From Tubulanus polymorphus (taxonomy: Eukaryota; Animalia; Nemertea): a stretch of 64,000 bases of DNA. Positions 33,561-60,877 of this stretch are shown here, piece by piece; the stretch's first letter is position 1; each line of letters opens with the position of its first letter. Below the pieces are notes generated by a model that ran no database searches, was not told where the DNA came from, and saw only the letters and a list, made by a program, of their open reading frames with translations. The stretch spans positions 18,327,101-18,391,100 of the forward strand of contig NC_134025.1 of the NCBI RefSeq assembly GCF_964204645.1, given 5' to 3'. Made by a program: the position numbers and the translations under genes.

Positions 33561-33799
33561 TGTCGGGGATTTGTGTAAGGGTTAATTACAGCTAGGGGGT
33601 TAACGTTCTGTTTGGCTGGTCAGTGTACAGGTGGATGCACGCTGGCTATTGGTCAGTCGTGACAATTGGGTCAGGGGCTTAGTCAGTCTTTATATCAATG
33701 TATTATAGAGTATAAGTTTAGTTGGCAAATAAAGTGTGTGGAGATCACACAGACATTTATATTGAATCACGTCTTGACTTCTCACAGATCGTACCCACA
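33561..33799 (+). repeat. BEL 5' LTR
   Basis: TGTCGGGG..CCCACA; matches 60878-61115. Confidence 0.95.
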
Positions 33800-33928
33800 T
33801 GCTTTTTGGTCCCTCGGAGCGCGGAGATGTGAGTCCATACTCAAAACCTGGATTTATGACTTTATACTTTAACTTAATGTTCATACGCAAGACATGGATA
33901 TAAGGTGTTTTATCGTATTTCGTCGAGA

Positions 33929-34965
33929 TGTCTGAAAAGAGGTTAACAAGACGACGTGGAGGCCATTATGCGGCCGCAGGTAAACTAATTAAAGAGGCAG
34001 ATGCGATTATTGTGACTCAAACCGTTCAAAGACCGGATTTATTGCGTTTAGAAAGAATTTTTCGAGTTTAAATGATCAATTGGATTATATCGCAGTATTG
34101 GACTTGGAGATTTTGGACGCTATCGACGATGATGCGGCATATGAAACCAGTTTTTCAACGTATTCAGACGAACTACTTAAACTTCGAGACAAGCACCTTA
34201 CTTACGGTCAATATGTTTCTGAAAAAACTGCGAAACCGGTGCCACCTACTCCTGGTGATAAATCAAAAGTGCGATTACCTCACTTGTCTTTACCCAAATT
34301 CAGTGGGAAAATTCTAGAATGGGAACAGTTCTGGGACGGTTTTAAGGCTGCGGTGCATGATATTTCGGAAACTCTTATACCTGGGGTGCAGAAATTTCAG
34401 CATTTGCGTAATCAATTGGAAGGTGATGCTAAGAACTGTATTGCGGGTTTATCGTTAACCGCCGCTAATTACACTGCGGCGATAGTACTGTTAAAAGATC
34501 GTTATGGTCAAATTCATAAGATCGTATCTGCTCATCTGAAAGAATTAGTGGACTTACAAGCTCCTGCTGATTCACCATCGAGTTTCCGGACATTTCGTGA
34601 CTCTATAGAGTCTCATATAAGGTCGTTAGACGCGCTTGGTAAAAGTTCTGATTCTTATGGCGATATGTTATCATCTGTAATTCTGCATAAGTTACCGAGA
34701 TCCGAGAGTTAGAAGAAATTTAATTCGTTCTCGCGGAAATAAAGAGTTATCGTTACAGCAATTGCGTGATTTTATGTCGGAGGAACTGGAAATTATGAAT
34801 GCGGGATTAGATTACACTGTAGATGACTCTAGTGAACTTACGGATATTTCTAGTTTACCGGTTTTCGACAATAATCAACAAAACAGCAGTAATAAGTCTA
34901 CGAAGAATCTCAAATGTGGATTATGCGATAAACAACATAAAGTTACCGACTGTAATCTAAACGGG
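33929..34965 (+). pseudogene. gag: BEL gag, 5' part
   Basis: VRLPHLSLPKFSG..WEQFWDGF..QKFQHL..LEGDA..NY..A..LLKDRYG; CGLC..H..C knuckle just before the P2 insertion. Confidence 0.9.
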
Positions 34966-35081
34966 AGTAATTAGAATATGTGGGTTTCATACCAGAGGAC
35001 GAGAGGACGAGACACCACTCATCACCACAAGTAATTTTTTTTTTCCTACTCATCACCACAATTAATTTTTTTTCCTAATAA

Positions 35082-38000
35082 ATGGGGGAGAATGAACACC
35101 AACTAGAAAACAATAATGTCAATAAAAATCAATATTATTGTCAATATTGTAAAAAATACATCGATACATCTAATAAAACACGACATGAAAAAACTGCAAA
35201 TCATATAAAAGATGTAATAGATTTTGAAACTCCAGAAAATTCCAATGAAAGAAAAGAACGATTAGAAAATATGAATGTGAATGAAATAAAATGTAAAGTT
35301 TGTGATGAATTTATAACAAAAAGGAATTATAATAGACATCTCGAAACAGAAAAACACCATCAAAATTTGAGAAATAATGTTTTAGGAATAGATTATTTTG
35401 ATGATAAACCTCAACAAGTAAAAGAATCAACTTCAAAAACTAAATCCATTTCAAATAAACCTTACATGGAAAATGTTAGAAATTATATTGATTCACTAGA
35501 AATAAAAGATACAATTGAAATCTTAGAAACATTACATAGTAAAATTGGTCCTGCAGCTATTATATTTAGATTTTTTAAAGGTACAACAATAGAAGATTAT
35601 AGTAAATTTAATGAAATAATAGAAAAAATACTAGATTTGATAACAGATGTTGAATATCCAAAAATTAGTATCTCTGGGAAAGTAAGTTTTATAAAGTCAG
35701 AAGAAAAAATGAATTATAATATTCAAACACACTCTGAAGAAATAATTTCAAAAACACAAATAAAAGAGAAGTTAGAAAAAATATTAAATGAATTTAAACG
35801 TCATATTGAAGAAAGATATTTTGAGGGTTCTGGCTTAACATTGAATGAAATTATATATTTAGATTTAAATGTTTATAATACAAAAAGGAATAAAACATCA
35901 AAAAGTAATAAAATGTTTAAAAATGATTCAAACTTTACAACAGAAAAGGATATGAAAGCATCAAGTTATATCAAATTACCGTTTACAACAAAAGCAGTAA
36001 TAAATATTCAAAATGAAGATAATAAATGTTTTCTATGGTCAATTATTAGTTGTTTACACCAAACAGAAGATATGACACATAGTTTTAGAATAACAAATTA
36101 CCGGAAATATGAAACATTATATAAAATTGATCAATATCCAGTAACTATAAAAATGATTCCTAAAATAGAAAAAGTTAATAATTTAAAAATAAATGTATTC
36201 GAATTAATGCAATTACCAAAGACAAAAGGTGAAAATATTAAAGATTATACATTGGAAGCTTTATATTTAACAGAATATTATGATGATGAAAATGCTATAG
36301 ATTTGTTATATTATAAAAAAGATGAAAATGAACATTATATGTGGTTAAAACAAATTGATTTATTCTTTAGAACAGAAAGTGATCATCATCGTAAAATTTA
36401 TCTATGTAGAAAATGTTTATCTAAATTTATGACTGAGAATACATTATTAAAACATAAAGAATTATGTGATAATAAAGATTTTTGTAAATTAATAATGCCA
36501 ACAGAAAAAGATTATAAATTGAAATTTACTAATCATAAATTTAAAAATATTGTTCCATTTGTAATTTATGGGGATTTTGAATCGTTGAATAAAGAATTAA
36601 CTGATCAAGATAGAAAAGAAATATATAACAAAAAGCAATTATTAAAATCAATGGATAAAGGAAATGAATTAAATGAAGACACAATACAAGACCCACCAAT
36701 TATAAATACAATTAAAAAAGTTCATCAAAGAGCTGCTGCTTATGGAATTTACATAAAATCAAATTATCCCGAATTATATGAAAGTCAATATATTTCTTTT
36801 AGAGGTGAAAATGTAGTTAATGATTTTTGTGATAAAATTATTGAATTAGAAAGTGATTTTGCAAAATTATTAAACAAAAATAAAAGAATAGTTTTGACAA
36901 AAGAAGATGAAATTGATTTTAATTATGCAACTCATTGTTGTTATTGTGAAAAACGTTTTTATTCATTTGATAAAAGAGTTAGAGATCATAATCATTTAAA
37001 TTCAAAATATCGTGGAGCTGCTCATGAAGATTGCAATTTACAAGCTAAAAAAGTAAATTTTGTACCAATATTATTTCATAATTTATCAGGATATGATACC
37101 CATCTATTTATAAAACAATTATCAGGAAAATTGGGTGCAATTAATCAAGAAATAGAAGAATATAATGCTATGAATGAAGCAAATGTAAGAAAATATGATT
37201 TTAAACTATTAGCTAAAACATCTGAAAATTATATTTCATTTCAATTTGGTTGCATTAGATTTTTAGATTCTTATAGATTTCTAGCAAGTTCATTAGATAA
37301 TTTATCAAAAAGTTTAGTTGATAATGATTTTGTTATAACTCGATATTATTATCCAAATGAACAAGATTTTAAATTATTGAGATATAAAGGCGCAATTCCT
37401 TATTCATTTTATAAAACACATGATGATTTTAATGTAACAGAATTATTAAAAGATCAATTTTATGATAAATTAAAAGAGGAGTATGTGAAAGACGAAGTTT
37501 TTGATAGAACATTAAATATTTGGAACCATTTTAAGATGAAAAATCATGGCGAATTAGTTGATTTATATTTAAAATCAGATGTTATGATATTAGCTGACAT
37601 ATTTGAAAAATTTAGAGAAGTTAATTTGAATCATTTTAATGTTGATCCTTGTTATTGCTACTCTAGTCCTGGTTTAACCTGGCAATGTGGTTTAAAATAT
37701 ACAAATGTAGAATTAGATTTATTAAAAGAACCAGATATGGTTTTATTATTTGAAAAATTAATTAGAGGTGGAATTAGTGGTGTTATGGGAGATAGGTATT
37801 TTAAAGCAAATGATGAATATAAATTATTATATATTGACGCCAATAATTTATATGGTTGGGCAATGATGCAACCTCAACCATATAAAAATTTTATATTAAC
37901 AGAAGTTGAAAATGGTGATAAAACTGATTGGGAAAGCGCAATTATTAGTTTAAAAGATGAAGCACCAATTGGTTATTTCTTTGTAGTTGATTTAGAATAT

Positions 38001-40151
38001 CCTGAAAATATAAAGTTTAAAACAAGAAACTTACCTTATTGCCCAAAACATTTAACTGTAGATGATAGTTATTTAAGTGAATACCAGAAGAAAATAAAAC
38101 CGAAAGATCATGTTTTTACAGAAAAATTAATACTTACTCAAAATAATAAATACAATTATATTGTTCATTATAGAATGTTAAAATTTTATCTAAAACAAGG
38201 AATGAAATTAAAGAAAGTACATAGATATATTGAATTTAATCAATCGAAGTGGTTAGAAAAATATATAGATTTCAATACTCAACAGAGAACCATATCAAAA
38301 ACAGATTTTGAAAAAGATTTTTTCAAATTGATGAACAATAGTTTTTATGGAAAAACTTGTGAGAATATTCGTAATAGAAACGACATTGAATTAGTAAATA
38401 ATTCTGAAAGATTAAGACATTTACAATCAAGTCCTAGACATTTAGGAAATAAAAGATTTGAAGATTATTTAACAGCAGTAAAATTAAAAAGAACGTCAAT
38501 GAAATTTAATAAACCCATTTTCATTGGTTCAACAGTTTTAGAAATATCAAAATTATTAATGTATGATTTTTATTATAATGTATTACAACCCTATTTTGGG
38601 GAAAAGAATATAGAAATTCTGTACTTCGATTCTATAACGGCTGACACCCCAATATTATTAAAATGTAATAATAAAATATTGGTAAGAAGAATTTCAGAAA
38701 TAATTCCAAAACAAAATGAATGTTATATTTCATATGGTGAAAAAGAATTAATACAAATAAATGGATTAATGGATGTTTGGACGAGAAATGGATGGAAAAA
38801 ATTAAAGAATATTATTAGACATAAAACAAATAAGAAAATCTATAGAGTTAGAACTAAATTAGGATTTATAGATTGCACCGGAGATCATAGTTTGATTAAA
38901 CAAAATGGTGATAAAATAAAACCAATTGATATAAAAATTGGAGATGAATTATTACACAACAGATTTTACCCAAGAATGAATCATATGTCATTTGATGAAA
39001 TGATTAATAATATTTGTAATATAGAACCCGAAACATTGGAAGAAAAAGAATATTTTATCAAAGGATTTTTCATGGGTGATGGTTCAGCAGGTGTGTATAA
39101 TTATGTTAGTGGAACTAAATATTGTTGGTATTTATGCAATCAAGACTTAAAATTATTAGAAAGAATTAAGAAATTCTGTGAAGAAGTTTATCGAAATAAA
39201 ACATTCAAAATCATAGATGTTATGAAATCATCAGCAGTTTATAGAATACTTGTAAATAATCCTAAAGATTTTGCTATAGAATATAATGATGAATTCTATA
39301 TTCATGCAATAGTGAAAAGTAATACTTCGACAAAAGAAAAGATAGTTCCAGATTATGTATTAAATGCAAAAAATAATTTAAGAAAATGGTTCTTCATTGG
39401 ATTCTATGCAGCAGATGGTTCAAAAAGTTTCCAAAACCGCAAAACAATATCCTTTGCTCAAAAAGGAAAAGTTGCTATATCAGGATTAGATATTTTATGT
39501 AATTCATTAGGCTTCAATATGAATATTGGATTGATTAAATCTAAACCAAATTGCTTTAATTTAAGCCATGTAGAAAATGAGTTAACTGAAGAAGTTAAAG
39601 ATTTATTTGAAATATATAACCCAACAGATTATGTTTATGATTTATCAACTGAAGATGGTACATTTAACTGTGGATTTCCATTAATAGCCAAAAATACTGA
39701 CGCCTACATACTAAAAATCAAGACAAATGACATCACAAAAGACTTAAAAACATTAAAACATCATTTTGATTTTAGCAATTATCCTAAAGATCATGAACTA
39801 TTTAGCAATGATAATAAAAAGATTCCTGGTAAATTTAAAGATGAATTAGGAGGTGATGAAATGATTGAATTTGTTGGGATAAGAAGTAAAATGTATAGTT
39901 ACAGAACAAAAGATCATGAAGCTAAAAAGTTAAAAGGAATAACAAAACATGTGGTTGATAAACATATAGAATTTCATGATTATATAAAGTGTTTATATAA
40001 ATCAATTGTAATGAAACACAAGATGAATTGTTTAAGATCAGAAGATCATGAGATGTACATTAATGAAGTTGAAAAAACTAGTTTAAATCCATTTGATGAT
40101 AAAAGGCATATTTCAGATGATGGTATAAAAACATTACCTTATGGTTATTAA
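35082..40151 (+). CDS. polB: Protein-primed family B DNA polymerase with N-terminal zinc fingers and an intein
   Basis: 1689-aa open frame; Exo YGDFES, FHNLSGYD, YLKSDV; Pol YIDANNLYGWAM, KLMNNSFYGK, YFD|TD, KMY, FDDKR. Confidence 0.97.
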   Translation: MGENEHQLENNNVNKNQYYCQYCKKYIDTSNKTRHEKTANHIKDVIDFETPENSNERKERLENMNVNEIKCKVCDEFITKRNYNRHLETEKHHQNLRNNVLGIDYFDDKPQQVKESTSKTKSISNKPYMENVRNYIDSLEIKDTIEILETLHSKIGPAAIIFRFFKGTTIEDYSKFNEIIEKILDLITDVEYPKISISGKVSFIKSEEKMNYNIQTHSEEIISKTQIKEKLEKILNEFKRHIEERYFEGSGLTLNEIIYLDLNVYNTKRNKTSKSNKMFKNDSNFTTEKDMKASSYIKLPFTTKAVINIQNEDNKCFLWSIISCLHQTEDMTHSFRITNYRKYETLYKIDQYPVTIKMIPKIEKVNNLKINVFELMQLPKTKGENIKDYTLEALYLTEYYDDENAIDLLYYKKDENEHYMWLKQIDLFFRTESDHHRKIYLCRKCLSKFMTENTLLKHKELCDNKDFCKLIMPTEKDYKLKFTNHKFKNIVPFVIYGDFESLNKELTDQDRKEIYNKKQLLKSMDKGNELNEDTIQDPPIINTIKKVHQRAAAYGIYIKSNYPELYESQYISFRGENVVNDFCDKIIELESDFAKLLNKNKRIVLTKEDEIDFNYATHCCYCEKRFYSFDKRVRDHNHLNSKYRGAAHEDCNLQAKKVNFVPILFHNLSGYDTHLFIKQLSGKLGAINQEIEEYNAMNEANVRKYDFKLLAKTSENYISFQFGCIRFLDSYRFLASSLDNLSKSLVDNDFVITRYYYPNEQDFKLLRYKGAIPYSFYKTHDDFNVTELLKDQFYDKLKEEYVKDEVFDRTLNIWNHFKMKNHGELVDLYLKSDVMILADIFEKFREVNLNHFNVDPCYCYSSPGLTWQCGLKYTNVELDLLKEPDMVLLFEKLIRGGISGVMGDRYFKANDEYKLLYIDANNLYGWAMMQPQPYKNFILTEVENGDKTDWESAIISLKDEAPIGYFFVVDLEYPENIKFKTRNLPYCPKHLTVDDSYLSEYQKKIKPKDHVFTEKLILTQNNKYNYIVHYRMLKFYLKQGMKLKKVHRYIEFNQSKWLEKYIDFNTQQRTISKTDFEKDFFKLMNNSFYGKTCENIRNRNDIELVNNSERLRHLQSSPRHLGNKRFEDYLTAVKLKRTSMKFNKPIFIGSTVLEISKLLMYDFYYNVLQPYFGEKNIEILYFDSITADTPILLKCNNKILVRRISEIIPKQNECYISYGEKELIQINGLMDVWTRNGWKKLKNIIRHKTNKKIYRVRTKLGFIDCTGDHSLIKQNGDKIKPIDIKIGDELLHNRFYPRMNHMSFDEMINNICNIEPETLEEKEYFIKGFFMGDGSAGVYNYVSGTKYCWYLCNQDLKLLERIKKFCEEVYRNKTFKIIDVMKSSAVYRILVNNPKDFAIEYNDEFYIHAIVKSNTSTKEKIVPDYVLNAKNNLRKWFFIGFYAADGSKSFQNRKTISFAQKGKVAISGLDILCNSLGFNMNIGLIKSKPNCFNLSHVENELTEEVKDLFEIYNPTDYVYDLSTEDGTFNCGFPLIAKNTDAYILKIKTNDITKDLKTLKHHFDFSNYPKDHELFSNDNKKIPGKFKDELGGDEMIEFVGIRSKMYSYRTKDHEAKKLKGITKHVVDKHIEFHDYIKCLYKSIVMKHKMNCLRSEDHEMYINEVEKTSLNPFDDKRHISDDGIKTLPYGY
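38631..39695 (+). mobile_element. Intein (355 aa) with LAGLIDADG homing endonuclease
   Basis: Splits motif C as YFD|SITADTPI..VYDLSTEDGTFNCGFPLIAKN|TD; block B DCTGDHSL; LAGLIDADG helices FIKGFFMGDGS and FFIGFYAADGS; absent from P1 PolB. Confidence 0.95.
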
Positions 40152-40166
40152 AATGGATCTATATCA

Positions 40167-41429
40167 TCAAACTTCTTCATTTTCATTTAATTGTTCAGGT
40201 TCTTCTTCCATTCCATTTTTCTCATTTAAATAAAGTTCTATCTTGTTCCACATTTCATCTCGCTCTCTTTGTTTCTTTTTGTTTGTTAATTCATCAAATG
40301 GAATTATGATATCTAGGTTTAAATAATTTACAATCTTATTTAAAAAGAATTCATAATTTATTGAATCTGTTATTCTATTTTCCAAATGATACATTAATAT
40401 TTGTTTAAATATTTTTTTTATATTTTCCATATCTTCTTCTGTTAATTTAGGTTTTTCATAATAATCGTTAAATAATAAATATAAATACATTTTCTTTTGT
40501 TTTGTGTTAAATGTTGGTGGAATAATTGTTTTTATAATATCTTTTTTAGTTATTTCACCATTTTTATTTTCTATTATTTTCATTTTTTCAAGCCATTGCA
40601 TATATTCTGGTGTATGATCTTCTATAGAAAATATTTTAAAAATTTCATCTAGATAATTTAATTTTGGTTCTATGAGAAAATCTCTAGTTTTTTCTTCACC
40701 CCATAAATTCTTTTGCCATCCACATTCAACACAAAATAACACAGTACCTTCTTGCCTTAAGGTCGCATAACTACATTGTGGGCATTTTTGTTTATAATTT
40801 CTTGGTAATAGATCTTCATTAAGCTCTTGGTATTTTCTTACGTTTTCTTTATGTTTTATTGTTCTATTATGTAGATTTGAATTACTTGTTGTAATAATCA
40901 ATTTACAATATTTACAATAATATGTTTTTCTTGTTAATTCATTATATTGTTTTTCTAACTTTCCAACTGTTTCTTTATTATCTGGTAACGTTTTCTCATA
41001 TTTTATTTTTTCTAATAAATTATTTTTTCTTTCATTGAATTCAGTTTCAAATTTATTAGAAATTTTATCTATATGTGCTTTACGAAATTGATGATTCCCC
41101 CAATCTTCTATATTTTCAGGGCTATATTTTACTTGACAAGGCTCACAGAAATGATCTTTTATATTATCCTTATCATAGAATAAGAAAGGTCTTTTCCAAA
41201 TAACTTCAGGTTCAACTTCAGCAGAATTACTATCAACATTAGCCGTTGCGCCATTAATTCTACACTTCTCTGAATGTTTTTTAACATAATTTCTTGAGAA
41301 TAATTTATTACATTTTGGACAGTTTATTTTAGGGGGTTTATAATTTTCATCATGTTTTTTCATATGTCGAGCCTTATTACTTTTTCTTAGAAGTTCACCA
41401 CAAATTTCGCATGCTATCTTCTCATCCAT
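40167..41429 (-). CDS. Zinc-finger protein with C-terminal poxvirus VLTF-3 (A2L)-like domain
   Basis: CPQC..FCVECG..KLNYLDEIF..LTEEDMENIKKIFKQILMYHLEN..SINYEFFLNKI..RDEMWNKI follows my recollection of vaccinia A2L; several N-terminal C2H2-like fingers. Confidence 0.75.
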   Translation of the reverse strand: MDEKIACEICGELLRKSNKARHMKKHDENYKPPKINCPKCNKLFSRNYVKKHSEKCRINGATANVDSNSAEVEPEVIWKRPFLFYDKDNIKDHFCEPCQVKYSPENIEDWGNHQFRKAHIDKISNKFETEFNERKNNLLEKIKYEKTLPDNKETVGKLEKQYNELTRKTYYCKYCKLIITTSNSNLHNRTIKHKENVRKYQELNEDLLPRNYKQKCPQCSYATLRQEGTVLFCVECGWQKNLWGEEKTRDFLIEPKLNYLDEIFKIFSIEDHTPEYMQWLEKMKIIENKNGEITKKDIIKTIIPPTFNTKQKKMYLYLLFNDYYEKPKLTEEDMENIKKIFKQILMYHLENRITDSINYEFFLNKIVNYLNLDIIIPFDELTNKKKQRERDEMWNKIELYLNEKNGMEEEPEQLNENEEV

Positions 41430-41497
41430 TTATTAAGGAAAAATTTTATTAAAATTAATTTTTAGTGATGAGCGGTAATTTTTTTATGTTATAAATA

Positions 41498-42257
41498 ATG
41501 GTAGAATTAAAAGAATACAGAATATTTATTGATTCTAGAAAACTTACAAATTATAAATCTCATAATTTACTAGTACAATTAGATAGAGATTTCAAGAATT
41601 GTGTAGATTTAAAATTAGTTAATATAAGTTTATGTAATTCTTTTTATAATATATCGGATAAAACTATTGAACATAATACTTTTTTAATTCATATTAGAAG
41701 TATAAATAAATGGTTTAATCTATTTCTAAGACCAGGATTATATAATTTAGAAACATTATCTCAAGAAATTAATCGGAGAGCACGATTAAAACTTAAAAGT
41801 GAAGATAAATTTTCAATTAGATTTATAAAAAGCGATAGTTCTGATAAAATTAAAATAAAGTTAGATGATGAAAACAAACATGCATTTATGGTAAAAAAAA
41901 CCTATAGCTAAACTGTTAGGAATTGTACCAGATACTGTTACAGGAAACGTAGAAGGTATTTCAAATATAATACCTTTTACACACTTTTATATTTATTGCA
42001 ATTTAATCGAGCCTACAAAAACATTTGAAGCAACTAAAGATATAACTTGTAATTCTAGTATATTAAATATTTTACCATTGAAGAATGTTAAAGAATTTGG
42101 AACGCAAATAAATTATAATTTAACAGAATGTGATTTCAAACCATGCATTCCTCGTTTTAATAATTTTAGATTAGAAATTAGAAATCATAATGGATACTTA
42201 ATTGATTTAAATAACTTTCCTGTAATTTATGAATTAGTTATAAGATGTAAAGAGTAA
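41498..42257 (+). pseudogene. Minor capsid (penton) protein, frameshift at A-run ~41893-41900
   Basis: IFIDSR..L..NSFYNI..PGLYN..LLGI..YIYCNLI..ILNILP..LEIRNHNG.LIDL pattern of Polinton/PLV pentons. Confidence 0.75.
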
Positions 42258-42273
42258 TTTTTTCACTATATAA

Positions 42274-42615
42274 ATGAATATAACTGTCGGACCGAGTATA
42301 TGTTTTGGATTTGATTTTAAACATGGTAAAGAAATGAGAATTAAACTAAATGACGTAATTACTGATATAAAAAGTAAATCATTTAACAATGCATCAATGA
42401 TTGATAAAGAAAAGTATAATATAGAAAAAGTAATTGATTTAATTAAATCACCTTTAGAATATTATGAATTAAATGAAGATGGAATTATTGATGATATTAA
42501 AAACATATTAACCAAAATATATGATAATCATAAAACTAGTAATAAAATAAATGTTGAATTAATCATAAATAAGTTAACTAAATATTTTGATGATAGTAAT
42601 TTTTTTGATAAATAA
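42274..42615 (+). CDS. Hypothetical protein (113 aa)
   Basis: TAAATG start; homolog relic in P1. Confidence 0.7.
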   Translation: MNITVGPSICFGFDFKHGKEMRIKLNDVITDIKSKSFNNASMIDKEKYNIEKVIDLIKSPLEYYELNEDGIIDDIKNILTKIYDNHKTSNKINVELIINKLTKYFDDSNFFDK

Positions 42616-42837
42616 ATGAGTGATAATAAGTGGATAATAACTGGATTATATAATGGCGCATTACTATCAGTTGGAACTGTTGGTTATTCAATGGTATTAA
42701 AAAAAGTATTCAAAATGGGAAGTGTTAATGTTGATAGATTTGATATAAATGATATTTTAAAGTTAACATTAGCAGTTACTTTATCTAATTTAACAATTGA
42801 TTATTTGGAAAAACAAAAATATATTCCTCCCATATAA
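42616..42837 (+). CDS. Small hydrophobic protein (73 aa)
   Basis: TAAATG start; two hydrophobic helices; conserved in P1. Confidence 0.75.
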   Translation: MSDNKWIITGLYNGALLSVGTVGYSMVLKKVFKMGSVNVDRFDINDILKLTLAVTLSNLTIDYLEKQKYIPPI

Positions 42838-42865
42838 GAAATATGTAATTTTTTTTGCTAAATAA

Positions 42866-43288
42866 ATGGCTTCTGCAATTATAACTATTATAGGATCGGC
42901 AATCGTTAACGCTTTAGCATTTACTGGTGGTGGTTATTTATTTAAACATATTGATAAAAATAGTTCATTAGGAGAACAAAGAAGACATAACTTAGCGTTA
43001 GAGAAATACAATAAAGCTGCAGAAGAATATAGAGAAAAGAGGCAAAACTATGTGGATTACATCAATAAAGAATTATATGATCAGAAGATTTCACATAGAG
43101 ATTTTCAATCAGTTGATGATGCAATGAGTTTATATAACGCAGTAACAAATAAAGAAAAATTACATCTATACAAACCTAAATTATCAGATTATCATACCCC
43201 GAGTAAAGAACAACAGAAATATGAAATAATATGGATTTTAGGTGGAACAGTTATTGTTATATTTGTTGCTTATAAGTTTACTAATTAG
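42866..43288 (+). CDS. Hypothetical membrane protein (140 aa)
   Basis: Hydrophobic N- and C-termini around a coiled coil; TAAATG start. Confidence 0.75.
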   Translation: MASAIITIIGSAIVNALAFTGGGYLFKHIDKNSSLGEQRRHNLALEKYNKAAEEYREKRQNYVDYINKELYDQKISHRDFQSVDDAMSLYNAVTNKEKLHLYKPKLSDYHTPSKEQQKYEIIWILGGTVIVIFVAYKFTN

Positions 43289-43307
43289 TAATTTTTATTC
43301 TAAATAA

Positions 43308-43742
43308 ATGGAAGATAAAGTTGATAATATTGATATTATTCCTCATGATATAAATAAAACTAAATTAAAAACATATTTAGAAAAACAAATATTAGAATTT
43401 GAAAGTGACTTAAAGATAAAAAAGAAAAAATATTTAAAAAGTAAAATTATATATTATTTGATTATAAGTGGTTCGGTTACAATTAGTTCTGTAATAACAT
43501 TTCTAGCAATATTCAGTCCATTAACACCTTTAGCTATATCAATTGGTGTATTAGGATTAAGTTCAAGTGTTTTAACCGGTATAAGTTCAAAATTAAATAT
43601 AAAAAGTAATAAAGAAAAAATTAAAACTAATATAAAAGAAATTAATAAATTAAAGAACACACTAGATTATATAATGAGTTTAAATGGTCATATAACAGTT
43701 GAAGAACAAGATAAATTATTAAAAGAATTAATAAATTATTAA
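43308..43742 (+). CDS. Two-TM coiled-coil protein (144 aa)
   Basis: Central hydrophobic hairpin; TAAATG start. Confidence 0.7.
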   Translation: MEDKVDNIDIIPHDINKTKLKTYLEKQILEFESDLKIKKKKYLKSKIIYYLIISGSVTISSVITFLAIFSPLTPLAISIGVLGLSSSVLTGISSKLNIKSNKEKIKTNIKEINKLKNTLDYIMSLNGHITVEEQDKLLKELINY

Positions 43743-43758
43743 TTTTTTAATTATATAA

Positions 43759-45147
43759 ATGGTAGATAGTTTTCCAAAAGCTTTCCAATATAATAAATCA
43801 ATTAAATATAATATTCCAGCAATAGATTTTAATAAAGATATTACGTATAGAAATGAAGTTTTAAATTCATTAATTGATTTATATATTTATGTTACTGAAA
43901 CTAATAATTTTAATGTAAAGATGGAAAATATATTTCATATATATTTAATTAATTTTAAAAAATTGAAAGATGAAAAACAATGGTTATTAAAATCTAATAT
44001 GAAGTATTGGCAGAATCAATTAAATTTTGCTGTTTATTGTGCAACAACAGGTTGTGGAATTAGTTGGAATGATCATTTAAATAATTCTAAATATAAACTA
44101 ATTCAAAGTTTATTTAGATTTCATACATACTTTCAAATCAGAATAATATTAAATGAATTAGAGTGCGCTTTACCAGGATCTAGATATTTCAAAGAATTAG
44201 ATAATGATATTAATTTATCTAAGTTTTATAAAATTTGCAATGAATTTAATATAGATATAAATAATTCTGATTTTAGAACAAAAATTGGAACAATAAGATC
44301 ACTTCCATGCCCTAGAAAGATTGCAGAATATTGTGCACTTCCCATACCATCTAATAGTTTTTATAATATCTATAATAATAAATTAGGTTATGGTAAAATA
44401 GAAACAAAAGATTTAGAAACATTAAATTTCAATAAATTACCAAAATTTTATGATAATTTAAAACAAGAAAACAATAATGGTTGGGTATATTTCATTTTAG
44501 AGAATAGTGAAGGTTTTACTAAATCAGGTATAGAAAGAATAAATCAATCTATTAGAACTTATTTGATTTGTATTCTAGGATCACTAGTTGAAACAAGATC
44601 ACCGATAATTGGAAATTTGAATACATCATTCGATACACAGAAACAGTTTAAAGTTTTATTTGAAGATTCAATTCATAATGATAAAAATAGATCGATTCCA
44701 GAAAACATTATAAGATATCAAAATTATTTAGATAAATCTCATGTAAGACTTAATTATTGTATAGGCCCTAATCTATTAATTATTTCTAATGATTTAGTAT
44801 TGAAGATGGGAAATATAATTGGTTATAATAATCTAATTAAAACTGCAACAATAAATAATTCATTTGGATTAAATGATATAAATAAAAAGATTATTACTGC
44901 TCCAAAATTAATGGAAGGTGAAAAAAATAAAAAACATATTCAATCAACAGAAACTAAAACTAAAAATATCAAATTAAATAATGATTCCAAAATAAAAGAT
45001 TACAATACATCAGAAAATATAAAAACTGATAAAATTCAACATGATATAATTAAAACTGATAATGATAATAAATCCCATGAAAATACTAAATTAGCTATAA
45101 CTTGTATAGGAATTGTAATCGGAGGAATATTATATTTTAAATTTTAA
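43759..45147 (+). CDS. Hypothetical Polinton protein with C-terminal TM anchor (462 aa)
   Basis: Long open frame; YWQNQLNFAVYCATTGCGIS; TAAATG start. Confidence 0.8.
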   Translation: MVDSFPKAFQYNKSIKYNIPAIDFNKDITYRNEVLNSLIDLYIYVTETNNFNVKMENIFHIYLINFKKLKDEKQWLLKSNMKYWQNQLNFAVYCATTGCGISWNDHLNNSKYKLIQSLFRFHTYFQIRIILNELECALPGSRYFKELDNDINLSKFYKICNEFNIDINNSDFRTKIGTIRSLPCPRKIAEYCALPIPSNSFYNIYNNKLGYGKIETKDLETLNFNKLPKFYDNLKQENNNGWVYFILENSEGFTKSGIERINQSIRTYLICILGSLVETRSPIIGNLNTSFDTQKQFKVLFEDSIHNDKNRSIPENIIRYQNYLDKSHVRLNYCIGPNLLIISNDLVLKMGNIIGYNNLIKTATINNSFGLNDINKKIITAPKLMEGEKNKKHIQSTETKTKNIKLNNDSKIKDYNTSENIKTDKIQHDIIKTDNDNKSHENTKLAITCIGIVIGGILYFKF

Positions 45148-45163
45148 TTTTTTTATTATGTAA

Positions 45164-46609
45164 ATGGATGTAGAAGGTGGAGAAAATATTCCATTGGATG
45201 ACATGGGAAATGATAATGAAGGATATATTGATGATGAACCACAAACCGATTTTAATAAAACTAATATTGATAATGATGATGAATCAGCATATAATTCTAA
45301 TTTAACTACACCTCAATATATTGACAAAGCACGTTCAAAGATAAGTATTGAAAATGAAGTACCAGAAATAACAGAAAAAGAATACAATTATAATGAAATT
45401 ATTCATGAATTTAAACCAATATTAAAAAAATCTGGTTTCAATATAACAAATAAAGGTATGGATTATTTAGTAAAAGATTTAAAATATTTAAATGGTGATT
45501 ATTATTGGAAATTGAAAGGCGACTATTATTTTAAGATTTCAGATCTTAAAACTAGCGATAAAATAATAATACAATCAACCGCTAATTTATTAGAACAATC
45601 TAGAATTAAGAAAATCATTGATGATGTTATAACTGATGTTACACAAGAAGAAAGAATTGTTAATTTAAAAGAATTTAAACAAAGAAATGCTAAATTTTTT
45701 GATATAATTAATGCAAATTTAGAAACAGAAACAACTTCTGAACAGAATATAACTTCCAAAACTAGTAAACCTAATTCAAGCGAAGTTCAAACTGAAAAAC
45801 TTTTACCGAAGGGATTACTTGATGCAACAAATCAACAATTAGAAGATTTAGATATATTTTCTGATAAAGCAATAAGAGAAATTGTTAGTATAAGACTTGC
45901 ATCTGAAAAAATTGCATATTATAAAAGTATAAGAGATCAAAAAATTAGAACTTTAGAAAAAGAATTAACTGATAAAAATAAAGAAATAGAACAATTAAAG
46001 TCTGATTTAGATCATCAAGTAATTGATGAAATAGAATATAAACAAAAAGAATTACGTTTAGAAAAAGAAATAGATGATTTAAAATATAACAAAGAATTAC
46101 AAAAAGAAGAAAGAGATACATTGTTAAAATCATATGATTATAATATTAATAGATTAAAAGTTATTTTTAAAGATTTGTTGATTAAACCAAATTCTGAAAT
46201 ATCACTAAAAGACAGAATAAGATTATTATTTAAATTAGAAGGAATAACAATTCTTTCAATTCTAACAGCTGTAACTATGTTATTTACAACAATTGGTTTA
46301 GCAATATCAAATGCTTTAAAATCTACTCCTACTCCCACTCCCAATAAACCAGATAAACCTCCAGGAAATAATTCTATACAAGATAAAGTTAAAGATGGTT
46401 TAAAGAAATTAGCAAAATATTTATGGGAACTATCTAAAAAATCTGCTGCAGCTTTACCAGGAGTTATTGCTTCAATTGTTGGTTTTATATTGAAATCTGC
46501 AGGAAACATTATTAACTTTGCTGCTGAACATATTATTTTATTTTTAATTACAGTTGTAAGTGCTATTATTTTTGGGTTAGTGAATATGATATCAAAAAAT
46601 ATCAAGTAA
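45164..46609 (+). CDS. Coiled-coil protein with C-terminal hydrophobic helices (481 aa)
   Basis: Long open frame; acidic N-terminus, coiled coil, TM segments; TAAATG start. Confidence 0.8.
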   Translation: MDVEGGENIPLDDMGNDNEGYIDDEPQTDFNKTNIDNDDESAYNSNLTTPQYIDKARSKISIENEVPEITEKEYNYNEIIHEFKPILKKSGFNITNKGMDYLVKDLKYLNGDYYWKLKGDYYFKISDLKTSDKIIIQSTANLLEQSRIKKIIDDVITDVTQEERIVNLKEFKQRNAKFFDIINANLETETTSEQNITSKTSKPNSSEVQTEKLLPKGLLDATNQQLEDLDIFSDKAIREIVSIRLASEKIAYYKSIRDQKIRTLEKELTDKNKEIEQLKSDLDHQVIDEIEYKQKELRLEKEIDDLKYNKELQKEERDTLLKSYDYNINRLKVIFKDLLIKPNSEISLKDRIRLLFKLEGITILSILTAVTMLFTTIGLAISNALKSTPTPTPNKPDKPPGNNSIQDKVKDGLKKLAKYLWELSKKSAAALPGVIASIVGFILKSAGNIINFAAEHIILFLITVVSAIIFGLVNMISKNIK

Positions 46610-46680
46610 ACCATGATATCAAAAAATATCAAGTAAACCATGATATCAAAAAATAAATAATTAATTTTTTTGTTAAATAA

Positions 46681-47930
46681 ATGAGTGGGAGTTATATAAG
46701 TCCTTCCACGAATCATAGAATATCTAATGCTATTAAAGCAGAAAGATCACATCATATAATTACTCATAATCCTTCAAATATTAATCCCGATGAAACTTTA
46801 TACGTTAGAATCCCTCGATTAACACAAAATACTTTTTATGTTCCAAATAGTATTTATTTATCGGCCGATATAAAAGTAATCGGTAATAATAATAATTATG
46901 TTGTCGATAATGTTGGAAGATATTTGATTAAAAAGTTAACAATAAAGATTGGTCCAGAAACAGTTTTCTCATTAGATGATTATAATTTATTTATGCATTA
47001 TAAAGATTTATGGTTAACTAAAGAAAATAGAAATAATATGATATTTCAAGGAATCCAATCAGAAAACCATAATAAATTAAGATCTGAAGCCAATAACGCA
47101 GTAGTAAATAATGGCGTAGATAATTTGATTAAAAAGATTTATGGAAGTAAATATAAAATTCCATTAGACTTTGAATTGATAAATAATAATGCACCTTTAT
47201 ATAAATACGCAATTCAAGAAGATATTATATTTGAGATAACATTTGCTCCTGTAAATGAAATTGTATTATCTAGCGTTGTTAAAGATATGGGTTATAAATT
47301 ATCGAATATATGTTTAGAATATAACACAGTAACTAATGAAAATATTGCTAGCGCACAATTCAAACTCAATACAATCAAGGATTTTCATTATTATATGATT
47401 ATATTGATAAATTTAAAACTGTAACTATTAATGCAAATGATGAAATAATTAATGAGAATATTAACTTCCCAAGAAGATCTATTAAAGGTATATTAATATT
47501 TTTTACTATTGCAACATATTCTAATGGTGCAATAAATGTTGATAATTATTATAATCCTGAAATAACAAAAGTAGAAATAACTATCGAAGGAATAGCGAAT
47601 AAAATATTTTGCCAAGGAATGAGAATGATTGATCAATGGCCAGAAATTAAAAAACATTTTATGAATGAAAAAGTAAAATCATTTGAAAATTGTAATATTA
47701 ATCAAATTGATTATTATACCGGTAATAAATATGCATTATGGTTAGATTTTAGAACAACTAAAGATAATTCATTACATGGTTCTGGGAAAAAACTACAGAA
47801 CACTAAAGATGGAATACAATTATTTATGAAAAAGAATAAAGGAATCAAAAATTTTAAAATGCACATTTATATTATATCTGACGCGCAATTAAATATTGTA
47901 AATTCACAATTAGATAGTATTCAATATTAG
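46681..47930 (+). pseudogene. Major capsid protein (putative double jelly roll), frameshift near 47355
   Basis: ~415 aa beta-rich when joined; HNPSNINPDETLYVRIP, YKIPLDF, YKLSNICLEY, FPRRSIKGIL, YALWLDFR; located next to integrase and ATPase. Confidence 0.7.
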
Positions 47931-47960
47931 AAATATAAAGTTAAAATTAAGGATATATAA

Positions 47961-48663
47961 ATGAGTGGTAAAAAAACTCCTAATACTAAAGAACAATATT
48001 TAAGAAATTTATATTACAACCCTGAGAGTTCGGTTGCTTATTCTTCTACTAAAAATATATGGCGTAAAGTAAAACAAGATAAATTAGATAAGATAATCCC
48101 ACAAAATTTAGTTAAATATAAAGATATAAATGAATTTATGTTAGAACAACCAACATATACAACACATAAAAAAATTGTTAGAAAATATAAAACTCGTAAA
48201 ACTATGGTAAGTTATGTAGATCAACAGTGGCAAGGAGATTTAATTGATATGAAAAATCTTAAAAAAGATAATAATGATTAATTTATATGGAGCATTTCTT
48301 GTAGATGATTTTGGTGAACCTAAATTTAAAGTTGGTCAAAATGTTAGAATTTCTAAGTATAAAAAGATATTTGACAAAGGATACGATCGAAATTTTACTA
48401 GAGAAATATATAAAATAAAAAAGGTAATAACAACAAAACCATATGTCTATAAATTAGAAGATTTAGATGGTGAAGAAGTTGATGGTTACTTTTACGAAGA
48501 AGAATTAAGTTTAACTACTGAAAATCTAGAACAAGAATATAAAATTGAAAAAGTATTAAAAACAAAAACTATTAAAAGAAAAAAATATTCTTTAGTAAAA
48601 TGGGTTGGATGGCCAGATAAATTCAATGAATGGATATTATCAAGTAAAATTAAAAATATATAA
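47961..48663 (+). pseudogene. Integrase with the catalytic core deleted
   Basis: LYYNP..YTTHK..QWQGDLIDM joins directly to NLYGAF..KFKVGQNVRISK..chromodomain LVKWVGWPDKFNEW; the IDIFSRY/DEGKEF/ERFN segment seen in P1 is absent. Confidence 0.88.
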
Positions 48664-49272
48664 ATGAATAAAGAATTATTTATATTTGAGCCTCATAATA
48701 TGTTAATTTCTGGTGTAACAAATTGTGGAAAAACTTATTTTATATTAAATTTATTAGAAACTGTTTATGAAAACTATTTTGATAATATAGTATTATTTTG
48801 TCCAACATATGAATTTAATCAAACTTATGATAGAAACATTACTAGAAATAATAAATTTATTATATTAGATCCTAAAACAGTAAAAGAAAATTTAGATAAT
48901 TGTATAAAAATAGCAATTGATATTTATAAAGGATCAAATACATTATTTATCATAGATGATTGTGCTAATCTACATGATTCAAAAGTTAGAGAAAGTGAGT
49001 TATGTTATTTAGCTTTCTCTGGCAGACATTTTGGGATAACAACTTGGGTTTTAAATCAAAAATATAATTCAATTGTTAAAGACTTTAGAGAAAACATTAG
49101 ATTTCTAGTTTTATTCTACAATAAAGATAGAAAATCGATGAAAAATGCACTTGAGGAAAATGATATTATTCCACATGATTTACATAATGAATATATGGAT
49201 GAGTTGAAAAATATTAAAAGATCAAAATTACTATTTAGATTACAACACCCATTTAAATATGAATTTATTTAA
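48664..49272 (+). CDS. DNA packaging ATPase (A32/FtsK-like)
   Basis: GVTNCGKT, FIIDD, SGRH, LNQ; intact 202 aa. Confidence 0.92.
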   Translation: MNKELFIFEPHNMLISGVTNCGKTYFILNLLETVYENYFDNIVLFCPTYEFNQTYDRNITRNNKFIILDPKTVKENLDNCIKIAIDIYKGSNTLFIIDDCANLHDSKVRESELCYLAFSGRHFGITTWVLNQKYNSIVKDFRENIRFLVLFYNKDRKSMKNALEENDIIPHDLHNEYMDELKNIKRSKLLFRLQHPFKYEFI

Positions 49273-49530
49273 ATTCAATTAGTTTGTTAATCTAGTTGAA
49301 TTCTAGTTATTGGTAGTTGTAACAAAAATCAAATAGATTTAACAATATTTTAACTAGCTTGTTAATCTAGTTTAATTCTAGTTATATTCTAGTTGAATTC
49401 TAGTTGTTAGTAGTTGAAACAAAAATCAACTAGATTTAACAAGAAATAAACAAAAACAATAATATTTCAACTAGCTTGTTAATCTAGTTGAATTCTAGTT
49501 ACATTCTAGTTAAATTCTAGTTGCAACATC
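49273..49530. repeat. TCTAGTT / AACTAG-rich repeat block of P2
   Basis: Repeated GTTAATCTAGTTGAATTCTAGTT units; the largest non-coding gap in P2. Confidence 0.8.
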
Positions 49531-49556
49531 ACACAACTAATTTTTTTATTATAAAA

Positions 49557-50162
49557 ATGGGAGGTGAAAAGAAAATAAAATCTAAAAATGGTGATGTTCC
49601 AATTGAAAAAACTTTAGATGATTTAGGAATAACAGAAAACAAATTAATTCCAGATGATGGTGCTTTAAATAATGTTACAACAAATAATAATTATGAATAT
49701 TATCTTTATTGTAAACATCAATTAGAAATATTAATAGCATCTGGAAAATGTAAAAATTTTGTCGGTAAAAATTTAACTTATAATGAATTAGATACAATGA
49801 AATCAGTTGAAATTATTAGATTATTTAAGATTTATGAAGCCGCGAGAACAGCTAAAATTAATGACGCGATATCAGAAAATGTAGTAAAAGGTTATAGTAA
49901 ATTATGTAATTATATACTACCAATTGAAGATGAAAATAGATTATATTCCGATTTAAAAAATGACTATTTAGTTATGACTGAATTAAATAAATGGATTGGA
50001 TATTTATCATTTCAATTAGGTGGATTTATGACATTATTATCAACTGGGGTTATAACATTTTCAAATATTGAAAGTAAAAATATTTCTATAATAAATGAGC
50101 GAGGTGAAAGAAGTGAAGGAATTAACTGTGAAGAAAAAACCGAGAACTCAGAAACAAATTGA
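49557..50162 (+). CDS. Conserved hypothetical protein
   Basis: Homolog of 15999-16586; ATG at 49557 preferred over the TTG start in the track. Confidence 0.75.
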   Translation: MGGEKKIKSKNGDVPIEKTLDDLGITENKLIPDDGALNNVTTNNNYEYYLYCKHQLEILIASGKCKNFVGKNLTYNELDTMKSVEIIRLFKIYEAARTAKINDAISENVVKGYSKLCNYILPIEDENRLYSDLKNDYLVMTELNKWIGYLSFQLGGFMTLLSTGVITFSNIESKNISIINERGERSEGINCEEKTENSETN

Positions 50163-50466
50163 ATGGTCTCGACAATTAGGAATTAAATCACAAGAATATA
50201 AAAAAGCTGTAAAAGAAAAAATAAGTAATAAAAATGTTAATAAAAATGGTGAAAATATTGTTATTTCTACTCCTTCTGATAGTAGAATATTTGATAAATA
50301 TTTATATTTTACATTTGGATTTGTAATTGTATTCATTTTGATTGGGTATAATTGGTATAAGAAATCAAATAAAATTCATGATATTAGTAGTAATTCTGAA
50401 CCAACTGCTATCAAAAATGAAAGTACTTCTGAAATTCCAAAATTGATAATAAAAAAAATGGATTAA
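50095..50466 (+). CDS. Small single-TM protein
   Basis: TAAATG start; homolog of 16579-16920. Confidence 0.7.
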   Translation: MSEVKEVKELTVKKKPRTQKQIEWSRQLGIKSQEYKKAVKEKISNKNVNKNGENIVISTPSDSRIFDKYLYFTFGFVIVFILIGYNWYKKSNKIHDISSNSEPTAIKNESTSEIPKLIIKKMD

Positions 50467-50613
50467 TAGAAATAATGAATATCTCACTACTTTTGTCTAT
50501 CACTGTGTGGGTGCTGTTTATGGCACCATCTATGTGGAGCAATTAAATTGTCCAGATAAGTCATTTCGGATTCTAGATATTCATTATTTCTATTAATTTA
50601 TTTTTTTTTAAAT

Positions 50614-50940
50614 TTAATCAACAATTTCTAAATCATGATGACCGTCTTCATTTTTCCCATGATATATTATTTTAAATCCTACTAAATCTTTCAATTCCTC
50701 CGTACTCAATGAAACCCATTTATCGGGTAAAAACACTTTAAATTCTCGCGATGTACTAACATTACAGTAGCTTAAATTAGCTGATACTTTCTCTCCATAT
50801 TTAGTTTTTATCTTTTCTAATTTCAATATTTTATGTTCAATTTCTTTTGTAACATCAACTAACTTTTTTATTTCAAATTGTTTTTTTGCTGGTTTTATTC
50901 TGTTATTTATTGTTGCTAAGAATGCTTTTCTATCTCCCAT
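50614..50940 (-). CDS. 108-aa terminal protein of unknown function
   Basis: Starts inside the right TIR at TAAATG; KIKTKYGEKV..VFLP; its 5' half is copied in both palindrome arms. Confidence 0.75.
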   Translation of the reverse strand: MGDRKAFLATINNRIKPAKKQFEIKKLVDVTKEIEHKILKLEKIKTKYGEKVSANLSYCNVSTSREFKVFLPDKWVSLSTEELKDLVGFKIIYHGKNEDGHHDLEIVD

Positions 50941-51062
50941 TTATTAGGAAAAAAAATTACTTGTGGTGATGAGTGTTAGGAAAAAAATTACTTGTGGTGA
51001 TGAGTGGTGTCTCGTCCTCTCGTCCTCTGGTATGAAACCCACATATTCTAATTACTAACGGG

Positions 51063-53221
51063 AAAGCTAAACTAGCAGCAGTTCGTCGGCGGAATTTATG
51101 TTTTAACTGTCTTAAAACTGGACATCGTTCGTTTAACTGTAAGTCGACTTTTCTTTGTCGGAAGTGTAATAAGCGACATCATTCAGCTCTGTGCGACTCG
51201 TTTACAGAAAAGGTCAATTCTTCAATTAACAACGTTAGCCAGTCTAATAAGAGTAATGATTCGACATCTAATAGCGTACCGAGCGTCGGACTCGGATCAC
51301 CTCAGCCTACTGATAGTGGACAACCAGAGATTCAGTCATCAAAAGTTGATTTACCGGTGAAGGATGTTAGTCAAAACTTTTTGAGTATTAATAAGTCGTC
51401 GTGTAGTAATGTTCTACTTAAAACTGCGCTAGCTCCGGTCAGTAATGGAAGTGATAATTCGTTTTCTCATAATGCGAATATTATGCTGGATGATGGATCT
51501 CAGCGTACTTTCATTACGACACAGTTGGCCGCTCAGTTAAAATTATCGCCTATAGGGAAAGAAAATCTGAACGTTTCTACATTCGGTAACACGGATTATG
51601 TTTCGAGAGAGTGTGATTTAGTTAAATTACATTTACAGTGTGTAGATAAATCGTATTTATCTATTCGTGCATTGGTTGTTCCGCATATAACCAATCCAGT
51701 GTTCGTAGCTGAGCGTACGAATATTAACAATATACAGTCACATGGATTAAAGTTAGCTCATCCGTTGACAGAACCTGTGGGTCGATTCGATATATCGCTT
51801 TTGATTGGTGCAGACCAGTATTATGACATTGTGACCGATGAAGTTATTCGATTTGACGACTGTAACACTGTCGCAGTGGGTTCGAAACTCGGATTTATAT
51901 TAGCTGGACCAATATGTTCGTCTACGTGGGATTCTACGCCGTCAGTTATGATTGTTAACACTGAGAATCAATTACTTGAAAGTTTCTGGTCGTTGGAGAA
52001 TATTGGAATACACGATAAAATCTGTCCGACCAAGGATGTTCTATCAGATTATGTTGATACAGGTATTCAACTGCGCGATGGAAAATATTATGCGAAATTC
52101 CCATGGAAGGATTCTCATCCGGAACTTCCTACTAATCGTTTCATAGCTGAGAAACTTACTCGTAGTACCGTTCGTAGACTTGGTAAGAAACCCGATTTAT
52201 TAGCGAAATATCACGAAATTATGATGGATCAGTTGTCTCGGGATTTTATAGAACTTGTTGACTTGGATAAGCCGGTATCTGATAAAGAGCATTATATAGC
52301 ACACCATTGCGTATTCAGAGATAGTGCTACTACGCCCATACGAGTAGTTTTTAACTGTTCTTGCTGTTCTGGGAAAGACAAACCGTGTCTTAATGACTGC
52401 TTGGAGTCCGGGCCTCCGTTGTTGAATAATATTACGTCGATTTTACTCCGTTTTCGTAGCGGTTACTATGGATTTACTTCGGATATCGAAAAGGCGTTCC
52501 TTAATATAGCTTTAGAAGAAGAGGATAGAGATTCGACACGCTTTTTCTGGTTGAGTGACCCTACTGATGTAGAAAGTGACTTTGTCGTGTATCGTTTTAA
52601 GTCTGTGTTATTCGGTGCGTCGAGCTCGCCTTTTATTTTAAATGCGACCCTGCTGAAACACTTAAGTGGATAACGTTATATCAGGAGCAGATACTATCAG
52701 TGAATCGATTGAATATTATAAAGCTTCGAGAAGTATTATGTCTGATGGTGGATTCAACATTCGTTCGTGGTCATCTAATTGCGATGACGTCACTAGATTA
52801 GCTGACTCTGATGGAGTATTAGAAAAGAGTACTGAAGTCAGTGTTCTCGGCCTTCGGTGGAATACCGTTAGTGACATGTTGTCATTGAATCGAAAAACTG
52901 TGCTACAAGACTCTCAAGATCTAGTTACGAAACGGAATATTCTTCATTCGTCTGCAACTATGTACGATCCGCTTGGATTTCTATCACCGTTACTTATCAC
53001 CGCTAAGACTTTGTTACAAGACATTTGGCGAAAATGATTGGGATGATAAGTTACCGCCCGATTTTGAAGATCGCTGGAACAAGATTAATTCAGATATTCA
53101 AAGCGCATCTTTGGTAATACCGAGGAGATATTTTGATCGACCTATTGACTCTGGGTGTACGATTCATGTTTTCGGCGATTCTTCGCAAACGTCTTATGGA
53201 GCTGTGGCGTATATAGTACAA
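51063..53221 (+). pseudogene. pol: BEL gag knuckles, protease, RT and RNase H N-terminus
   Basis: CFNCLKTGH..C, MLDDGSQRTF, LLIGAD, YIAHH, IRVVFN, SDIEKAFL, FGASSSPF, VDN, YDPLG, HVFGDSS..YGAVAY. Confidence 0.92.
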
Positions 53222-54891: not shown

Positions 54892-54899
54892 CAGGAGAC

Positions 54900-60794: not shown

Positions 60795-60877
60795 CTGTTC
60801 AGTAAAATTGAGTTGTGGATTAAAACTTTCATTATCTTTATATGTGTGTTTAAGTTAACATTTTCTCCCTGGGAGGA

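Follow-up and report, generated by a model that had tools for sequence, protein, structure and literature searches.

A full-length LAGLIDADG intein in the protein-primed polymerase of a Polinton integrated in the genome of the nemertean Tubulanus polymorphus

Inteins that interrupt motif C of DNA polymerases at the pol-c site are known from Mimivirus and other Nucleocytoviricota (PMC549080; PMC5784728), prasinoviruses included (PMC5371798). We analysed a stretch of 64,000 nucleotides from Tubulanus polymorphus (contig NC_134025.1, positions 18,327,101 to 18,391,100 of the forward strand; hereafter the window), in which the protein-primed DNA polymerase (pPolB) of a Polinton carries an intein. 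It resembles the Nucleocytoviricota inteins in its YxD/TD insertion site (the slash marks the point of insertion), in Ser1, the terminal Asn and Thr at +1, in the Thr and His of block B and in its LAGLIDADG nuclease. However, their host protein is the delta-like PolB of a giant virus, whereas here it is the protein-primed polymerase of a 16-kb Polinton present in many copies in animal chromosomal DNA.

Viral polymerase inteins carried into a eukaryotic nucleus by endogenous viruses have been described on nuclear scaffolds of Klebsormidium, Tetrabaena and a labyrinthulomycete (PMC10710043). These hosts are algae and protists, whereas the present case shows mixed filled and empty targets in an animal; the words Polinton, Maverick, animal and metazoa do not occur in that paper. 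Among DNA viruses of animals, inteins are found in invertebrate iridoviruses such as Chilo iridescent virus (PMC549080), and iridovirus polymerase inteins have been listed (PMC5784728). Because iridoviruses are animal DNA viruses with inteins, animal cells already meet inteins in infection. These inteins, however, reside in free large viruses, and the Chilo intein ends in Gln (PMC549080). Nuclease domains within Polinton polymerases are known as HNH/VSR insertions (PMC10748475), which were suggested to stem from intein invasions (PMC11161782). They lie elsewhere in the protein and have no described Hint domain, whereas the window insert is a complete splicing and LAGLIDADG intein at the catalytic motif; the terms LAGLIDADG, Hint and homing are absent from PMC10748475. 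Archaeal homing-endonuclease inteins (PI-PkoII, TliVMA, PI-PfuI and that of Haloferax polB) share the two-domain fold, but their hosts are prokaryotes and they are 13-18% identical to the window intein in structural alignments. Homing by gene conversion has been demonstrated for the Haloferax polB intein (PMC3024317), whereas for the window intein we infer it.

Reviews describe inteins as absent from metazoan genomes (PMC5784728; PMC8529194). A Hint and LAGLIDADG intein in a Polinton, a protein-primed polymerase or an animal chromosome was not described in the literature searched; the supplements of PMC10748475 and PMC11161782, or papers beyond the literature searched, could list one. Passages of PMC12220804, PMC3671162, PMC5718144 and PMC13768754 describe no such Polinton intein either. 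The intein allele as such is known; the kind of host gene and the genomic setting are new. A preliminary description, drawn from the window sequence alone, had set the find against the near absence of canonical inteins from metazoan genes; the intein does lie in an animal chromosome, but the interrupted gene is viral (Polinton) and not a metazoan host gene. It provides a concrete route for inteins into animal nuclei. Polymerases from E. coli to human share the conserved motif-C site (PMC549080), and why inteins have nevertheless not passed from Polintons into animal host genes becomes a testable question.

The intein and its predicted activity

The insert of 355 amino acids is free of stops, lies in frame within the open reading frame (ORF) of 1,689 amino acids (Table 1) and is bounded by ILYFD upstream and TDAYI downstream, which is polymerase motif C (YFD/TD). 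A second, decayed Polinton in the window (73% nucleotide identity) lacks the intein; it aligns as far as position 38630, and the alignment picks up again with the first codon past 39695, so that the insert is exact. This confirms the in-frame insertion in motif C that the preliminary description had noted. The same description had identified the site with the one used by archaeal and Mimivirus inteins, in agreement with the Mimivirus site YGD/TDS (PMC549080). The intein begins with Ser1 and ends with Lys354-Asn355, followed by Thr at +1, and its block B reads T83-G-D-H86. Residues S1, T83, H86, D150, K237, D262, D337 and N355 are invariant in all 20 Polinton inteins compared, which are 41-61% identical to the window intein and include near-copies.

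Profile searches and structure prediction support this identity. The insert matched TIGR01445 (intein N-terminal region) with 30.8 bits against a cutoff of 24.5. For Pfam Intein_splicing (cutoff 35.8), the whole protein passed with a score of 41.4 and the insert alone remained just below with 34.3, while LAGLIDADG_3 (PF14528) was above its cutoff. An AF2 model from a 29-row alignment reached a pLDDT of 85.6 and a pTM of 0.88, and was used instead of a single-sequence prediction with a pLDDT of 35.8. Its top PDB structure matches (Foldseek) were the homing-endonuclease inteins TliVMA (E 1e-16), PI-PkoII and PhoVMA, and I-DmoI was matched as well. A PDB sequence search with the intein gave a single significant match, PI-PkoII, and the ESM Atlas returned generic LAGLIDADG/intein clusters only. 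The two LAGLIDADG helices recognised beforehand are placed by the model at residues 136-150 and 248-262, each ending in one of the invariant acidic residues D150 and D262. The insert thus shows the hallmarks of a class 1 intein (exact in-frame position, Hint fold, Ser1, block B TxxH, block F Asp, terminal Asn and Thr+1) together with those of a LAGLIDADG nuclease (two helices with acidic ends, alpha/beta fold and the PF14528 match).

A penultimate His is usual in inteins but not obligatory. The preliminary description had drawn attention to a Lys in its place, and Lys354 is indeed present; it is, however, not unusual: of 217 distinct motif-C relatives, 82 have Lys at this position and 109 have His. 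Among the 20 Polinton inteins it is His in 14, Lys in five and Ser in one. Lys354 was therefore ruled out as a special feature. For the same reason the penultimate His, which is listed among conserved intein residues (PMC7765530) and which the window intein does not have, was not treated as defining.

The insert divides the catalytic motif of an ORF that has no other interruption and must therefore be removed. We consider, with a probability of roughly 0.8, that it is a full-length pol-c-type intein in a Polinton pPolB which is predicted to self-splice and whose nuclease likely homes into empty sister copies. Following the class 1 route, an N-O shift at Ser1 would be assisted by T83 and H86; attack by Thr+1 and cyclisation of Asn355 would then join the exteins and restore the catalytic DTD motif. 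The LAGLIDADG domain would cut the empty site of sister Polinton copies, and repair would copy the intein into them.

Filled and empty target sites

Site occupancy was surveyed, as the preliminary description had proposed, among the best 120 pPolB relatives (cluster representatives): the site was empty in 106, filled in four and unscorable in ten. For the window species, we used raw reads from a different sample filed under the same species label (X5), about 12% of which was read. At 80% likeness, the intein (14 bins) had a mean depth of 212 and the exteins (13 bins) one of 516, a ratio of 0.41 that is a rough measure of occupancy only, distant families inflating the extein depth. At 90% likeness, the depth was about 145 in the intein, 248-317 in the exteins and 32-42 in the host flank. 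Among the reads listed, at least 34 skip the intein and at least 159 diverge from the window sequence at 38617. In the P0004 family (95-99% identical), for which 15 out of 136 members were listed and two sister clusters were added, seven copies were filled and 15 empty. The pPolBs P0143 and P0146 have exteins only 0-1.4% apart, one with the intein and one without it. Filled and empty alleles therefore coexist in the window species and in two other Polinton families.

Mapped on a tree of the upstream exteins (49 rows, the empty rows hand-picked), occupancy required ten changes, of which eight were forced by starred branches, and it clustered no more strongly than in shuffled data (76-80 of 500 shuffles were as low). 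The coarse branching of the intein and extein trees nevertheless agrees, and extein identities are paralleled by those of the inteins (60/61%, 49/48% and 46/41%). Such agreement would be expected if the intein spliced with a dead nuclease, the patchiness then reflecting vertical inheritance, repeated loss and ordinary recombination among copies. We consider this unlikely: both catalytic Asp residues and the block-D Lys are among the residues invariant in 20/20, and the full-length Polinton inteins recovered are all of 337-355 amino acids with no mini-intein among them, in a search that favoured full-length ones. A third point against it is an excess of variation restricted to the target site in an invaded family.

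This excess was found in the P0004 family. Within 10 amino acids on either side of the site, the filled copies are identical to each other, while filled and empty copies differ by about 40% against a background of 1-4%. Among the 15 empty copies there are three main variants and no match to the filled flank, and variation among the empty alleles is 5.5-fold over background. The ratio was 0-0.4 in five control families without an observed intein, each represented by 6-12 members that include the site, and across 111 unrelated empty pPolBs the same segment was middling in variability (68th percentile). The pattern suggests that empty copies escape the nuclease, cut-resistant empty sites having presumably been selected. 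Some points weigh against this interpretation. The signal comes from one family and from the protein level, the site is unchanged in the one empty allele seen in another invaded family (P0146), and recombination or conversion tracts instead of selection could give the P0004 pattern.

The window copy itself has flanks that look recoded (Table 1). The proportion of codons ending in G or C (GC3) within 10 codons on either side is 9/20, whereas the exteins have 9.6% and no background segment exceeds 0.32, and 77-95% of the reads differ from the window copy at five listed positions within 38618-38627. These flanks may represent either a tract converted from a different donor or a site that had escaped and was then invaded anew. 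An empty allele of a related family about 70% identical (P0548) has TDAYI after the site like the window copy, while six of seven sampled members have TDSYI.

Where the homing would take place is a separate matter. Tentatively, at somewhat less than even odds, we picture a live intein in animal germlines that converts integrated copies, has jumped between polymerase classes and drives an escape arms race at the catalytic motif, with variant inteins, possibly including the window copy with its recoded flanks, re-invading escaped sites. Another possibility, which we hold credible without favouring it, differs solely in the place of homing: the intein would splice, but would home only among free Polinton genomes while these replicate in the course of infection or activation, and integrated copies would be passive snapshots that undergo no conversion in the chromosome. 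Judging from its split capsid and integrase genes, the window copy is defective although its polymerase frame is whole, which counts against the main reading given above and speaks for passive snapshots. The window copy is also unlike most reads within the intein, and many empty copies persist, one of them in this window. On the other hand, filled and empty alleles each occur in multiple copies within one sample, the intein reaching several times the depth of the host flank, and archaeal polB intein nucleases convert chromosomal as well as plasmid targets (PMC3024317). In either setting, the filled and empty targets form a natural population in which homing and target escape are measurable from genome data, and a site-specific nuclease directed against a multi-copy element may shape Polinton copy number.

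Relationships and origin of the Polinton inteins

The nearest relatives of the window intein are other Polinton inteins (41-61% identity), whereas non-Polinton inteins reach at most about 41% over the full length. Scans for relatives covered viral collections (37 loci), metagenomes (80 of 130 kept) and prokaryote genomes (11 loci); identities over the full length stayed at or below 41%, and archaeal matches were weak. FastTree, run on 208 of the 217 distinct motif-C inteins (lengths of 300-440), placed 19 rows in one Polinton group with a support of 98. A careful tree was built from 62 hand-picked rows, namely 11 Polinton inteins, 44 other motif-C inteins and seven motif-B-site inteins as the root, with long-branch rows excluded; most of the other motif-C rows carry no individual classification, and archaeal pol-c inteins are absent from the trees. 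All 11 Polinton inteins formed one clade (100/100) on a stem of 0.47 changes per site, nested among the other motif-C inteins, and together with the 44 they were split from the motif-B-site inteins at 100/100. The preliminary description had proposed a tree against polymerase inteins of large DNA viruses, and the Polinton clade is indeed nested among them.

The sister group of the Polinton clade (98/93) contains nine rows, three each from giant-virus-labelled contigs, unlabelled PolBs and T4-like phage polymerases. Two of the giant-virus-labelled contigs have eukaryote-like neighbour genes (ubiquitin, SET and WLM). A non-nested placement of the Polinton clade was rejected by the approximately unbiased (AU) test (p = 0.027; 34-row subset, root-dependent). 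In BFVD, the best structural matches of the model were PolB inteins of a phycodnavirus, Pandoravirus, Marseillevirus and Megavirus. An ultimate origin among PolB inteins of large DNA viruses is thus favoured by the careful tree, the AU test and the structural matches, and the intein would be a marker of genes passing between large DNA viruses and Polintons. Several observations count against too firm a reading of this placement. In a quick tree of 81 rows, three long-branch non-Polinton rows joined the Polinton rows and the clade support dropped to 53. The FYMINK value is shared by the Polinton inteins and the sister group (0.42 vs. 0.415; 0.375 in the others), and an AT-driven composition held in common may pull the sister group onto the Polinton clade. 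Because the sister group also contains T4-like phage polymerases and shares this composition, the trees do not appear to fix the donor lineage.

The three phage sequences (P0012, P0015 and P0289) are T4-like phage DNA polymerases (PHROG 262) whose motif-C inteins group with giant-virus ones, which suggests intein exchange between phages and giant viruses.

The preliminary description had gone further and proposed that a co-infecting large DNA virus had passed the intein to this element, as independent support for life in a viral factory. The nested position and the structural matches agree with a large-DNA-virus source, and this part of the proposal is retained as the favoured ultimate origin. 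A recent pickup by this element is nevertheless quite improbable: all 11 of 11 Polinton inteins fall in one long-stemmed clade, a monophyly that contradicts recent capture, and no non-Polinton intein comes closer than the identity given above. The suggestion of viral-factory life was dropped, as capture needs only a shared cell and the presence of an intein is uninformative on the replication compartment. The data fit one old capture, probably from a giant virus PolB gene, followed by long residence in Polintons with repeated gain and loss, in which the intein would have persisted through cycles of invasion and loss among co-resident elements.

One such gain may have crossed polymerase classes. 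The P0007 polymerase has no alignment to the window pPolB (P0001) upstream of residue 1137, yet its intein is 46% identical to the window intein and groups with it at 99/92, so that the intein probably jumped to a distant pPolB class. Here too a result tells on the other side, as the nesting of P0007 within the Polinton clade was not significant (AU p = 0.143).

Two Polinton pPolBs, P0010 (with an intein) and P0163, are filed under the bacterial names Candidatus Thiodiazotropha and Sulfurimonas; these are probably host DNA in bacterial bins.

The Polinton, its chromosomal site and other elements

Polintons are recognised by terminal inverted repeats and a 6-bp target-site duplication. The window element extends over 16,091 bp (34966-51056, ends AG...CT) and has both features, together with a pPolB and an A32-type ATPase (Table 1). 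It lies in a BEL/Pao long terminal repeat (LTR) retrotransposon, whose gag it breaks between DUF1759 (left) and a zinc knuckle (right); the retrotransposon also encodes Pao peptidase, DUF1758 and DUF5641. BEL/Pao elements have been described as restricted to metazoans (PMC3118150). Among 120 listed matches of the BEL/Pao protein, all those that name an organism are animals, and the protein is recorded on a 32,063,560-bp contig. The empty chromosomal site is also seen: the joint 34959 to 51057 occurs in 11 X5 raw reads (nine start positions) and in one contig of a further data set (X1) that may be the assembled sample, while other X1 contigs end exactly at both Polinton junctions. The host is an animal because reads show this empty chromosomal site, and the Polinton is integrated in an animal chromosome, as the preliminary description had thought probable.

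A GC content of 22-25% in the Polinton against about 35-45% in the flanks, and the lack of reads across the filled junctions among the reads listed, might point to an assembly chimera or a non-animal contaminant. This is scarcely credible, given the exact 6-bp duplication inside a gag that carries on at both sides, the empty-site joint and the X1 contigs that stop at the junctions, the length of the contig and the exclusively animal named matches.

Table 1 Features of the window that bear on the intein, its Polinton and the host element (aa: amino acids).
Feature	Position	Strand	Remarks
Intein-free motif C of second, decayed Polinton	14440..14470 (site between 14454 and 14455)	+	alignment to window pPolB
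BEL/Pao LTR retrotransposon hosting the Polinton	33561..61115	+	LTRs 33561-33799 and 60878-61115, 97% identical
6-bp target-site duplication	left 34960..34965, right 51057-51062	.	exact flanking repeat
Left terminal inverted repeat	34966..35089	+	124 bp, 94% identical to 50933-51056
pPolB, 1,689 aa, uninterrupted ORF	35082..40151	+	relatives at 49-60% identity carry PF03175
Upstream flank, unusually G/C-ending codons (recoded-looking homing site)	38601..38630	+	GC3
Intein, 355 aa	38631..39695	+	Hint N ~aa 1-110, LAGLIDADG ~aa 120-313, Hint C ~aa 320-355; limits from the model's secondary structure
Block B, T83-x-x-H86	38877..38888	+	T and H invariant in 20/20
D150, acidic end of LAGLIDADG helix 1	39078..39080	+	invariant in 20/20; helix 136-150 in model
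D262, acidic end of LAGLIDADG helix 2	39414..39416	+	invariant in 20/20; helix 248-262 in model
Blocks F and G, D337 to Lys354-Asn355, then Thr+1	39639..39695	+	D337 and N355 invariant in 20/20
Downstream flank, unusually G/C-ending codons	39696..39743	+	GC3 8/16, segment length picked after inspection; Ala at +3, Ser usual
Probable major capsid gene, split over two frames	46681..47930	+	weak Capsid_N match, E 0.002, below cutoff; second piece without match
Probable integrase remnant, two pieces, C-terminal chromodomain	47961..48663	+	Chromo E 6e-5, below cutoff
A32-type packaging ATPase	48664..49272	+	Pox_A32 E 2.5e-13
Right terminal inverted repeat	50933..51056	-	124 bp, 94% to left repeat

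On the window pPolB itself, PF03175 gave no match at E 0.01. A stretch of the form CxxC...DH...H..C at residues ~620-655 (window ~36935-37050) is by eye like the endonuclease VII/HNH insertion of relatives; PF02945 was found in the relative P0143, and the corresponding stretch of the window pPolB had no Pfam match. The start codons of the pPolB (35082) and of an ORF of 108 amino acids at the opposite end (50940) lie inside the terminal inverted repeats, both facing inward. Polintons usually also encode a retroviral-type integrase, a double jelly-roll capsid and a protease. The probable integrase remnant gave no rve match and shows no catalytic core, and no protease was matched among the scanned ORFs of the Polinton.

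Other elements were observed in the window. The second, decayed Polinton (about 10850-20270) contains its related pPolB, an ATPase and other genes, with short remnant inverted ends. A fold-back element at 20861-31391 combines long inverted arms of 2.5 kb (93%) with about 8 kb of 24-bp tandem repeats and Polinton-like termini, and 200 bp of it are nearly identical to 50775-50975; it is probably a non-autonomous Polinton derivative. At about 53800-58400, a long interspersed nuclear element (LINE)-like element (ORF1-like coiled coil and reverse transcriptase pieces) is nested in the BEL/Pao pol region. The segments 5464-7165 and 8503-9799 hold an LTR-retrotransposon integrase remnant (rve match) and a 510-bp inverted repeat pair (95%).

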